In this document: in pieces, positions 3,211 to 62,959 of the stretch
Position numbering within the stretch: position 1 is the first letter of the stretch
Layout: the number at the start of each line of letters is the position of its first letter
Assembly: GCA_951406725.2 (NCBI GenBank)
Contig: OX597822.1
Location: 35,712,001 to 35,776,000, forward strand
From: Octopus vulgaris
Lineage: Eukaryota
Direction: 5' to 3'
DNA length: 64,000 nucleotides
Notes under the pieces: model-generated
Database searches by the model: none
The model's input: the letters and a program-made list of their open reading frames with translations, nothing else
What the model was told of the DNA's origin: nothing
Translations under genes and position numbers: made by a program

Positions 3211-3279
3211 CTTGTTGAAGAGGACTTCGCCTAGTAAATTATTTTATTTGCTAAAATAAGTCAGAAACCATGGTCCAGG
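3211..3279 (+). ncRNA. Type I hammerhead ribozyme, long stem II, degenerate
   Basis: CTTG-TTGAAGA-GGACTT..AAGTCA-GAAA-CCATG-GTC-CAGG. C3U change and a G.A mismatch at the base of stem II. Confidence 0.6.
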
Positions 3280-3559
3280 AAAGAGATGGTAAATGTTTTT
3301 ATTTTTCATTCCCTTCAAGAATTTATCCCTAATTAGTGGTTTGGACTTTCGCTTTTCTTTCCAGCGTAAGTGATTCCTATGATGGAAACCTCTTAATGTG
3401 TTTAAATGTACACTGCATTTTATATAAATAATATATAGCCTATTGACTGATTTTCTATACTCTAGGCCACTGGTAGTAAAAATTTCTAAAATCTTTATTA
3501 CGCTGATATTATTAATTATATATATATATATATATATATATATATATATATATATATAT

Positions 3560-3867
3560 ACAATTAAGGATAAAATCTTAATAAGGAATCTTAACAAGAA
3601 ATTATCAGGTAGTTAGCGTGAAAAACCTCATAAGAGAAAAAATTCGAAAATAATTTTTTTACTTGAAAATATTTATTTATATTGTATAGAGGGCATTATT
3701 ACACATAAATGCCACACGCTAAGAGGGACATAAGTCATTACTACCAAAATTTAACTAATCATACCTAATGCAGCTCTCTAATGATTAGTTAAATTTTGGT
3801 AGTAATGACTTATGTCCCTCTTAGCGTGTGGCATTTATGTGTAATAATGCCCTCTATACAATATAAA
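3560..3867. repeat. Repeat fragment ending in a perfect 87-bp foldback
   Basis: Arms 3676-3762 and 3781-3867 are exact reverse complements with an 18-nt loop; between TA-rich microsatellites. Confidence 0.85.
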
Positions 3868-4669
3868 AATATATATATATATATGTATGTGTATATATAT
3901 CTGTGTGTGTGTGTATAGATAGATAGACAGATATGTATGTGTGTGTATATATATAGATATAGATATATATATATGCATGTATGTATATAAATACATGTGT
4001 ATATTTATATACATACACACACACATATGTGTGTTGTGTGCTGTGTGCGTGTGTGTTGTGATGTCTGTGTGTGTTGTTTGTGTTTGTGCGTACGTGTGTG
4101 TGTGTACGTGTGTGTGTGTGTGCGTGTGCGCGCATTAAAGCAGTGAGTGACCGTTCAATTAATGCACAGTTCCTGTTTACAATGTTCCACACAGACAAAG
4201 TCTTAGATATTAATCAACTAAAACTGAAGGCACTTGTCCAGGATGTCTCAGAATTTCTCAAGATCCTTGTATTTTTACCCAATCAAAAATGTTCTAAAAT
4301 TCCAATCTTATCGGTTCTGCGGAACCAAGTGTAATCCATAGATTACGAAATGGCAGTAGGATATGAGTGGTTAGAAGGCAACGTGCGTTACTCTGTATAT
4401 GTTATTGCATAAATGATAGCGTTTTGTGTCGTGACAAAAGCGATATTTCGAATATCTGTTAGTTGAAGTAATTGTGCAGATTTTATCACTATCTTCAGCA
4501 GAATGTGAACAGAAGTATGCGTAGCATATAGTTCTGAGCATAACAATATATCAGATATGTACACTGATAGGAAATAGACATTAAGGAGTGGTTAAAATGT
4601 TTGCTTAACACAATGTCTCGATCCTAATGCGTGGCAGATGTCTTCCAAACTTTGCAGGAAACCTACTCA

Positions 4670-5190
4670 CACACAATAACTTCGAACACATGCGCACGCA
4701 CACACACACACACACATACACACATACACACACAATAGCCTCGAACATACACACACGTACGCACATGCACACACACAGTTTACGCATACACAAGAGCTTA
4801 ATATACACACGCAAACAAGCAAGCAGGCAGGCACACACACACACAATAGCGTCTAAAACACACACTCATACAACAGCCTTGAACACACACACACACAAAT
4901 CAGCAAGCAAGCACACACACACACACATGCACATGCACAGTTTACACACACACAAGAGCTTAATACACACACGCAAACAAGCAAGCAAGCAGGCACACAC
5001 ACACACACACAATAGCCTCGAAAACACACACTCATACAACAGCCTTGAACACACACACACACACACAAATCACCAAGCAAGCACACACACGCACACACAT
5101 GCACATGCACAGTTTACACACACACAAGAGCTTTATACACACACATACACATACAAACAAGCAAGCAGACACACACATATACACTCACAG
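4670..5190. repeat. CA-rich compound minisatellite (about 160-175-bp unit, about 3 copies)
   Basis: Motif cagtttac..cacaagagctt recurs near 4776, 4938 and 5110. Confidence 0.8.
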
Positions 5191-60756: not shown

Positions 60757-60893
60757 CAGTTTCCATCTACCAAATCCACTCGAGAGGTTTTCGTGAGCTC
60801 GGGGTTATTGTAGGCGATACTTGCCCAAGGTGCCACGCATTAGGACTGACCTCGGAACCATGTGACTGAGAAACAAACTTCATACCACACGGC
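60757..60893 (-). mobile_element. SINE family B 5' fragment
   Basis: cagtttccatctaccaaatccactc..cttgcccaaggtgccacgca..ggaaccatgtg. Confidence 0.75.
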
Positions 60894-60919
60894 AGCGATT
60901 GCGGTGATAGGAAGACAAT

Positions 60920-61320
60920 GAGAGAGAGAGAGAGAGAGAGAGAGAGAAAGAAAGAAAGAAAGAAAGGAAGGAAGGAAGGAAGGAAGGAAGGAAGGAAGGA
61001 AGGAAGGAACGAACGAACGAAGGAACGAAGGAACGAAGGAAGGGAGGAAAGGAGGGAGGAAGGAAGGAGGAAGGAAGGAAGGAAGGAAGGAAGGAAGGGA
61101 GGGAGGAAGGAAGGAAGGAAGGGAGGGAGGAAGGAAGGAAGGAAGGGAGGAAGGAAGGAAAAAAGAAAGAAAGGAATGGAGGGAGGGAGGAAGGAAGGAA
61201 GGAAGGAAGGAAGGAAGGAAGGAAGGAAGGAAGGAGGAAGGAAGGAAAAAAAAAAAGAAAGGAATGGAAGAAGGAAGGAAAGAAGGAAGGAAGGAAGGAA
61301 AGAAGGAAGGACAAAAGAAA
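60920..61320. repeat. Polypurine (GA)n/(GGAA)n microsatellite
   Basis: About 400 bp, almost purine-only. Confidence 0.95.
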
Positions 61321-62358
61321 GAACGAGAGAGAAGGTTTTCTCTATCTTATATTTTTATGTATTTGTCAATGTATGTGTGTATGTATGTATCGGTATATGC
61401 ATTAATATTTATATGTTTATATTGTGCATCTGTGTACGCGCGCGCGTATATATACATATATGTGCGTGCCCGTATGCTGATAAGTATAAGTGCGTATATA
61501 TATATATATATATATGTATGTATGTCTATGTATACGTATATGCATATAAATTTTTTTGCGTTCGTATGTATATATATATATATATATATACACATACATA
61601 TATATGCATATATATATATATATACGAACGCAAAAGTATATATATATATATATGTGTGTGTGTGTGTGTATGTATGTATGTATGTATGTATGTATGTATG
61701 TATGTATGTATGTATGTATGTATGTATATGCGAATGTATACATATGTGTGTGTGTGGGAGGCGTGTGTAATGTCTATTCATTTTTATGACTGCGAATGCG
61801 TAGGTAAGTGAATATATATGTTATATATACATGTCAAAAATATGCACATATATATAAGTGCATATTTGCACATATATATATATAAGTGCATATTTGCACA
61901 TATATAAATACGTATGAATATATATATATATATATATATATATATATATATATATATATATATATATACATATATATATACACACACACATATATATATA
62001 TATATGTGTATTTATACGTGTATATTATATCTGTGCCTATGTATACATATGTATCCATACGTAAGTGTATGTACGCGTAAGCACTTACTTATACAAATAA
62101 ATTACTTTCGCCAACATTCTCATTACATCTTGACACCTAAAGTCTATCCGATACTCCCGTTAATATTCTATTTACTTCAGATTTCGCCATTTCTATCTTG
62201 CTTTTATATAATCACATACCCATTATTTTTTTATTGTAATGTATAATCTTATGCTATCTTCTATGTATTTGTGAGTATATGCGTAGATATGTATATTTCG
62301 ACTAGTACATATATATGTATATGTATATATATATATATATATATATATATATATATAT

Positions 62359-62959
62359 CAATAATATAGGGTGAAATTAATTAATTAATTTAGAAATAAT
62401 CATTAATTTCGCCAAGTAGAGATCGGCATGTAAAAGCCCCATTCAAGGAAGGTTTAAGTAATACTAAGTAAGTAAGAGTTTAGCAACGATTTGCCTCACC
62501 ACACACCGAATTTAGAAATAGCAGTCAAAAAGTTTTAGCTATTCTTTCTACTTAAAAGGGAGATCCCAGTAAAACCAAAGCACTTAAAAAGCAAACAACG
62601 CAGGCAAAAGAGAAAGAAATGACGAAAATCATTGTATATTAAATCACCTACGGACGTACGTTTCGGAATTAAGTCATTGCAGAGCATAAAAATTAAATAA
62701 TTATGTCTTACCTGACTATTTTCCTCCTCAGCGTAGGACTCTTCAATCATATTAATAATTGTGTATTAAATTTGAAGGCACTAGAAGACATCACCTCAAC
62801 TCATGGTATCAGAGCGAGCGTAAGCCATTACGCTCCAAATTCAAAGGATGAATGAAAGTATGTCACCATCCCCCTTCCGCCAGCGTACTGCCAAAATAAG
62901 ATGCTACAGTTGAGGTGATGTCTTCTAGTGCCTTCAAATTTAATACACAATTATTAATA
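62359..62959 (-). mobile_element. Non-autonomous hammerhead-bearing element (Penelope pLTR / retrozyme-like)
   Basis: Perfect 52-bp inverted repeat 62750-62801 / 62908-62959; internal hammerhead; 3' end on (TA)n; shares ttt(t)g.ctgct.tttcta and a.cc..tatatt.att motifs with the 10648 element. Confidence 0.8.
62647..62737 (-). ncRNA. Type I hammerhead ribozyme, apparently intact
   Basis: Minus strand: CCTACG-CTGAGGA-GGAA..(60 nt)..TTCC-GAAA-CGTAC-GTC-CGTAGG; predicted cleavage between 62653 and 62652. Confidence 0.88.

Follow-up and report, generated by a model that had tools for sequence, protein, structure and literature searches.

Retrozymes without long terminal repeats (non-LTR retrozymes) that derive from, or are moved by, Penelope-like elements (PLEs) are already a published type of system, and those of mussel, coral and axolotl cleave and circularise (PMC7229834). 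Which enzyme moves animal retrozymes, and whether ribozyme cutting is needed, is left open in the papers cited here. Here we analyzed a 64,000-nucleotide stretch of the Octopus vulgaris genome (the window; assembly GCA_951406725.2, contig OX597822.1, positions 35,712,001 to 35,776,000 of the forward strand), in which an original prediction, made from the letters alone, had seen three hammerhead ribozyme elements with a long helix II. We concluded that the three loci, A, B and C, are probably fixed-unit tandem non-coding retroelements with a hammerhead whose helix II spans 40-65 nt, likely transcribed as multimers or circles and likely copied into (TA)n by a protein of Penelope type, whose most likely source is a Hydra-type lineage carrying the long helix itself. 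Judged by sequence, they have the features of PLE-moved non-LTR retrozymes.

Type I hammerhead layouts could be read from the letters at all three loci. Hammerhead B (window positions 10909..11004, plus strand) consists of TCTCTG (10909-14), CTGACGA (10915-21), a 61-nt helix II, GAAA at 10983, a 10-nt palindrome, GTC ending at 10998 (predicted cut after 10998) and CAGAGA. Hammerhead C (62647..62737, minus strand) consists of CCTACG (62737-32), CTGAGGA, a 60-nt helix II, the palindrome CGTACG, GTC ending at 62653 (predicted cut after 62653) and CGTAGG. Hammerhead A (3211..3279, plus strand) consists of CTTG (3211-14), a core at 3215-21, a 42-nt helix II, the palindrome CCATGG, GTC ending at 3275 (predicted cut after 3275) and CAGG. 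The common architecture that had been proposed was confirmed as a layout, but not in every detail: the CUGANGA/GAAA/NUH core is perfect in B and C, whereas the core of A reads TTGAAGA, with U at position 3 (U3), and a G.A mismatch opens its helix II. A strict type I descriptor accordingly matched B and C and missed A in a scan of the window, and a descriptor that accepted C or U at position 3 gave three window matches versus none in 200 locally shuffled windows. Rfam returned no hammerhead family among 145 window matches (E up to 1), and at the gathering score it returned no hammerhead in six loci. Since one of these six belongs to a short-helix family, G, the long helix alone does not explain the miss.

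The elements around the hammerheads end on (TA)n, 244 (A), 230 (B) and about 297 (C) nt past the predicted cut, in agreement with the predicted distance of about 230-290 nt. Their termini are similar, as had been noticed: a hairpin is followed by an ACCC-T-AT-rich run that A, B, C and a further family, E, have in common (11178..11228 on the plus strand in B, where it forms the second internal start site). At locus A, 0.8 of a 470-bp unit (3135..3519, plus strand; 90-93% identical to a natural unit) is preceded by a short inverted arm (3111..3134, minus strand), which ends at the first internal start site and by eye equals the reverse complement of the A unit near 130-150. The family B element is a partial tandem of 1.2 units of a 470-bp repeat (10675..11228, plus strand; 93-96%), and its inverted arm (10635..10672, minus strand) corresponds to unit positions 107-143 and also ends on (TA)n. 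At locus C, 0.95 of a 599-bp unit (62356..62911, minus strand; 87-94%) adjoins an inverted 5' piece of the insertion (62908..62961, plus strand) that covers unit positions 432-485.

Further copies were sought in the single 2.8-Gb assembly of 227 contigs that contains the window. A first DNA search gave 3248 candidates for A, 2093 for B and 5914 for C, and the scored copies were 84-99% identical. Among the best 30 loci of each of these families, the conserved block was short and no open reading frame (ORF) was common to the loci. Tandem copies recur at spacings of 431-473 bp in A (n=5), 469-478 bp in B (n=3), 583-600 bp in C (n=3) and 532-535 bp in E (n=12), and each unit is non-coding and holds one type I hammerhead, which is the arrangement of non-LTR retrozymes. 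The copies are dispersed in high number and have no LTR-type layout; their ends are (TA)n-joined internal starts, and no search aimed at a primer binding site or polypurine tract was made. The units are more closely related than the little shared sequence of the original prediction implied, since A and B are colinear homologues over their full length (z 26.8, none of 60 shuffles as high). B and E show weak homology (z 6.9), and C shares just the terminus, with family E (z 3.9). Among 49 distinct A-type copies, U3 was present in 34 and an A.A at the base of helix II in 43, so that both are traits of family A. Pieces of family B were found as contigs in four runs presumed to be RNA, from which strand, ends and circles are not deducible.

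Two families outside the window were also observed. Family E (L123, L152-L156, e.g. G000:C1:16524500-16531500) has perfect cores, arrays of up to six of its 532-535-bp units and the strongest circular fold, and is the best candidate for an active member. Family G (L185, G000:C1:70535303-70538335) is a young tandem retrozyme of 353 bp whose helix II has the canonical 4 bp; it too has two start sites and provides a natural short-helix control for the long-helix families.

We then asked how often the fold itself occurs in the genome. A core-only pattern with a 37-64-nt helix II gave 7298 matches versus 11 in a reversed control, and a complementary-case core pattern gave 731 versus 2, which makes 8,029 versus 13 for long-helix-II cores in total. 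The B-type pattern gave 520 versus 62, the A-type pattern 528 versus 1 with overlapping matches counted twice, and a short-helix pattern 804 versus 35, mostly family G. For each pattern search, 30 copies were fetched from the first 100 matches listed, and pairing was scored in 109 distinct copies out of 120 pattern-picked loci. Copies were assigned to families by rule, which left three unrelated motifs among the rows of B and a C copy in one row of D, and the palindrome of A was set by the pattern.

Stem I pairs over at least 4 bp in 89 of the 109 copies, compared with 7.3% of 9428 cross-family pairings (19 of 25 in A, 24 of 27 in B, 20 of 20 in C, 21 of 25 in D, 5 of 5 in E and none of 7 others), and 95 of 109 have a paired helix II base, compared with 29.9% of cross-family pairings. 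With the relatedness of copies ignored, 93% of cells were paired in family C (18 distinct rows), where 7 of 24 pairs had changed on both sides (none of 500 shuffles as high), and likewise 93% in family B (23 rows), where 9 of 23 pairs had done so (1 of 500 shuffles as high). These two-sided changes fall in stem I, in the 4-bp helix II base and in the apical helices; helix II is built of a normal 4-bp base helix, an internal loop and then one or two AU-rich helices. An unconstrained search for covarying column pairs was too noisy to be of use. In the A/B lineage, a conserved GGC just 5' of stem I complements a GCC in the internal loop of helix II (window 3205-3208 and 3228-3231), with two-sided changes in L318, L302 and L019. 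Taken as a tertiary contact between helices I and II, or as a pseudoknot of the 5' flank with the internal loop, the complement was no more frequent than with permuted partners (68 pairs; 687 of 1000 permutations as high).

The stem III palindromes have a predicted energy of 0 to -0.3 kcal/mol as a monomer hairpin and of -7.8 to -17.3 kcal/mol as a duplex. Stem III is therefore predicted to form only between two ribozymes, in line with the original remark that a palindromic stem III favours dimeric cleavage. Circular folds of six single natural units were predicted to be more stable than shuffled sequences (z -2.5 to -6.9, 25 shuffles each). With thousands of copies, stems that covary within and between families and compensatory changes in B and C, the two proposals of further copies with such changes and of selection for structure both held, and the sequences support a non-coding family that has diversified while selection kept its structure. 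Other hammerhead-like motifs, at least ten, unrelated and with a 37-63-nt helix II, some of them with GUA triplets, were seen in passing (L148, L241, L290, L022, L065, L146, L147, L141, L254, L266).

The copies bear the signature of PLEs, two fixed internal reverse-transcription starts. They form partial tandems in (TA)n whose left arms are inverted, and their 3' ends cluster at two sites: +140 and +220-239 in B (64 of 79), +160 and +230-259 in A (52 of 74), and +190 and +290-309 in C (57 of 75), the far site lying after the common hairpin and ACCC-T-AT-rich run. As read from the DNA, both strands of the target were often primed, which produced the partial tandems and their inverted arms; in L386, a 160-bp C insertion consists of the two arms alone, one per start site. 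This two-start, both-strand anatomy matches the biochemistry of a PLE from Anolis, in line with the predicted Penelope-type mobilisation. The 5' ends are spread. With a centred reference, only 6 of 95 (B), 5 of 78 (A) and 2 of 84 (C) lie within 20 nt of the cut, without a pile-up; an apparent excess at the cut was an artefact of a reference opened there and disappeared with the centred one. This result indicated that the template crosses the cut site, and is thus a circle or an uncut multimer rather than a cut linear monomer. In family B, 11 of 95 5' ends lie 20-39 nt past the cut, for which subfamily divergence is a possible cause.

The insertion anatomy and the pattern counts bear on whether these are retroelements at all. 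A satellite DNA that had spread through unequal crossing-over, and whose AT-rich sequence held hammerhead-like words by chance, could account for the E arrays of up to six units and for AT-rich inserts that fold easily. It does not account for insertions that are dispersed, have fixed ends and inverted arms and are flanked by (TA)n, for a pattern excess hundreds-fold over the control, or for compensatory changes. We regard it as refuted, with a probability close to nil. The loci might instead be merely 5'-truncated solo pseudo-LTRs (pLTRs) of autonomous PLE families whose full copies were unsampled. The hammerheads of family D are exactly such, with sequence continuous upstream with a PLE ORF, and PLE copies are mostly truncated. 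Such continuity was not found for A, B, C and E. Upstream of their hammerheads lies the terminus of the preceding unit, with the identical junction at independent loci. A PLE frame occurs within 1.5 kb upstream in just 3 of 77 pattern-picked A, B, C and E copies, with a fourth case in the C copy binned as D, and on inspection the four were three separate insertions and one chimera. We consider truncated pLTRs a very improbable explanation.

What moves the elements was approached through family D, the commonest long-helix motif, which is the 3' end of an autonomous lineage: in L160 and L144, a reverse transcriptase (RT) and, C-terminally, a GIY-YIG are followed by the hammerhead. The lineage has 10903 candidates with open frames of 778-908 aa, and of 50 fetched loci, 40 have a long-helix-II hammerhead downstream (36 of the 46 that are distinct). 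Compared by eye, its RT and GIY-YIG motifs match the Hydra proteins in the supplement of PMC8557442; the Pfam GIY-YIG match for the Hydra-type protein was weak (E 0.048), and the only named close homologue of the partner protein was from Argonauta hians. Helix II measures 60 nt in a second Hydra-type family. An arm of such length is indeed unusual, as first thought, but it is not confined to the non-coding elements, being present in autonomous Hydra-type PLEs as well. Separately, a Hydra-type subfamily (L221-L223, L237) has intact 778-aa frames and a CCGAAGA core without C11.1, yet is abundant. Family K (L159/L199), considered as an ORF-fused family, was rejected, as its short frame is the 3' untranslated region (UTR) of another Hydra-type element.

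The Hydra lineage is joined directly to the non-coding families in two insertions, each a single block flanked by (TA)n. L318 consists of an inverted D arm, 77 bp of the D ORF end and an A-type unit that is not followed by the rest of D; L249 consists of an inverted D arm, the D start site and a C unit. We consider it fairly likely that A, B and C were mobilised by this lineage.

The original prediction had pointed instead to a Naiad protein at 16945. The element there (16945..18935, plus strand) is a 5'-truncated Hydra-type PLE with a C-terminal GIY-YIG and a 1.2-kb 3' UTR; it is a neighbour, and a partner role is not shown. Its hammerhead (18858..18900, plus strand) has CCGACGA, a short, 3-bp helix II and a GTA triplet. 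Pfam gave no match for the ORF, which represents a third Hydra-type family and is 27% identical to a D-lineage protein over 239 aa. A GIY-YIG before the RT was absent: the 16945 ORF and the long-helix lineage both end in GIY-YIG and a stop, which makes the element Hydra-type and not Naiad. Naiad had to be given up as the mobilising partner too, since according to PMC8557442 it has an N-terminal endonuclease, no canonical hammerheads and a long inactivity in cephalopods. The cephalopod Naiad entries marked 'HHR_half_core' were likewise rejected as the source, because the Octopus Naiad 3' end, in the available part of that material, is unlike these units. A 47-bp near-copy of part of the 16945 ORF (17150-17196) was noticed about 1 kb upstream, at window 16061-16107.

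Several points weigh against the reading given at the outset. In L249, the C unit could be nested, having inserted on its own at an AT-rich end. Both chimeras were found by inspection, and the automated junction scans together gave only L249 and L188. Comparison of A, B, C and E with three Hydra-lineage ends and the 16945 family end revealed no alignable homology (z at most 2.1). The covariation counts were uncorrected for kinship of the copies. We infer cleavage, circles and the partner from sequence, and the lack of a 5'-end pile-up fits circles but uncut multimers equally. Whole subfamilies have spread with altered cores, such as the U3 copies of family A, and 23 of 40 Hydra-linked hammerheads are altered at positions 3-4 and read CCGA or ACGA, those of intact 778-aa frames among them. 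Insertion by a lizard PLE was independent of the ribozyme, with no reads ending at the cut (PMC11167929), and 8 of 9 Xenopus retrozyme dimers failed to cleave. Finally, a second young intact PLE, of Neptune/Nematis type (about 811 aa, 9942 candidates), also resides in (TA)n.

This second PLE, or several PLE lineages, might supply the mobilising protein in place of the long-helix Hydra lineage. Its frames of 807-819 aa were intact in 12 of 12 fetched loci, it shares the (TA)n targets, at L188 its RT directly abuts the short-helix family G (its one direct junction), and the missing primary homology between A, B, C and E and the Hydra ends would agree with such a mover. However, its own hammerhead is minimal, with a 2-bp helix II by eye, and both direct junctions with long-helix families involve the Hydra lineage. 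We judge this alternative unlikely, though not negligibly so. In L381-L392, the Neptune/Nematis-type core reads TTGAAAA by eye, a U3-A8 type.

The altered cores raise another alternative, that cleavage is vestigial: uncut tandem transcripts would serve as the template, and the long-armed fold would be kept for protein binding or RNA stability. Altered cores are fixed in expanding subfamilies while the stems stay paired, 5' ends show no excess at the cut, and ribozyme mutants left in vitro insertion by the lizard PLE undiminished (PMC11167929). On the other hand, perfect cores in thousands of copies of unrelated families, and a stem III that stays palindromic despite sequence change, are hard to explain without catalytic selection, and the mussel, coral and axolotl retrozymes do cleave and circularise (PMC7229834). 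We hold vestigial cleavage to be a serious possibility, if on the whole not the likely one.

Regarding activity of the ribozyme, in the Anolis ribozyme C3 pairs with G8, and mutating either (C3G, G8C; C3U was not among the changes described) abolished cleavage (PMC11167929). Axolotl retrozymes (PMC7229834) and examples in PMC3088659 tolerate a mismatched helix II base. Locus A may be inactive, and with subfamilies spreading on altered cores, cleavage may be weak or dispensable, while thousands of copies keep a perfect core and a palindrome particular to their family, which speaks for selection on catalysis. Given altered cores in spreading subfamilies, perfect cores elsewhere and tolerated base mismatches, weak or protein-assisted cleavage appears to be the best reading.

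On our favored reading of retroelements moved by a Hydra-type protein, tandem transcripts would be cut after GUC, weakly or with help from protein, in a stem III formed between two ribozymes, which would give unit-length RNA that a host ligase could circularise. Copying, as the DNA shows, starts at the two fixed AT-rich sites, 140-190 and 230-300 nt past the cut, and crosses the cut site into the next unit; the protein would be supplied in trans by intact Hydra-type elements. A bolder version seems doubtful to us: the hammerheads would be a distinct long-helix-II subtype, common to several Hydra families and a retrozyme radiation, whose arm is a docking site for the Hydra-type RT/endonuclease; the protein would license or replace cleavage, and the chimeras would be the first direct genomic record of the mover.

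The genome offers a matched set: young, intact candidate proteins from two PLE lineages, non-coding families (at least five) whose starts are mapped, spreading natural core mutants and a short-helix control. The approximately 8,000 cores lie outside a 7-17-nt spacer descriptor like that of PLE surveys, and censuses of other invertebrates may therefore undercount.

The window also contains degenerate arrays of short AACCCT-like units (12600-15310) around a longer-unit tandem array (13725-14813), and a 1.7-kb minisatellite with a period of about 20 bp (44966-46645). Broken frames split by trinucleotide runs (19478-20248, plus strand) resemble what we take to be the C-terminus of a non-LTR retrotransposon.

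In the open literature, excluding subscription papers, we found no description of a 40-65-nt helix II in type I hammerheads, nor, with Repbase and Dfam also outside the search, of cephalopod retrozymes; the accessible parts of PMC6765202 and PMC10886601 added nothing on cephalopods. Some families may already stand in Repbase or Dfam as unclassified or Penelope repeats, and the retrozyme supplement of PMC7229834 may include mollusc examples. In viral type I hammerheads, a helix II called 'long' has 6-8 bp (PMC13725137). What is new here is a long helix II that the non-coding units share with autonomous PLEs of Hydra type, together with the mapping of start sites and the insertions that are chimeric.

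Compared with known systems, the octopus elements resemble most the metazoan non-LTR retrozymes of coral, mussel, axolotl and newt satellite 2 (PMC7229834), which are non-coding tandem units with one type I hammerhead each, a weak palindromic helix III, low GC, a stable predicted circular fold, no LTR features and a PLE as proposed partner. They differ in unit length (470-600 bp here, 150-450 bp there), in helix II (40-65 nt versus the usual 4-5 bp hairpin) and in their dispersal in (TA)n, mostly as 1-3 units, with inverted arms and two fixed starts, known from DNA alone. Retrozymes described as non-autonomous PLE derivatives, with units of up to 972 bp (Li, Clavereau, Pollet, bioRxiv 10.64898/2026.07.22.740005), likewise co-occur with PLEs and are proposed to hijack a PLE protein. 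That survey, in its accessible part, covers vertebrates, three insects and a coral, with no mollusc, and its link is that pLTRs are homologous; the octopus elements have no detectable homology to the PLE ends sampled, and the link is insertion anatomy, a common fold and chimeric insertions.

As in the minimal hammerheads of PLEs (PMC4209133), the motifs are of type I and dimer-dependent by prediction, with palindromic helix III positions, a G10.1-C11.1 base and high diversity with covariation within one genome. Their helix II of 6-8 bp, however, lacks the internal loop and second (and third) helix added here. Hydra-clade PLEs (PMC8557442) share the C-terminal GIY-YIG, the (TA)n targets and the hammerhead at the 3' end, whereas those of their published consensus hammerheads that were examined have helix II regions of 13-25 nt, compared with 46-60 nt in two Hydra-type families of the octopus. 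The Poseidon PLE of Anolis (PMC11167929) is alike in its two internal RT starts past the hammerhead, its AT-rich targets and the extension of both strands; it is autonomous, its starts are 30-40 nt apart rather than the 70-110 nt seen here, its helix II is short, and its ribozyme needs protein.

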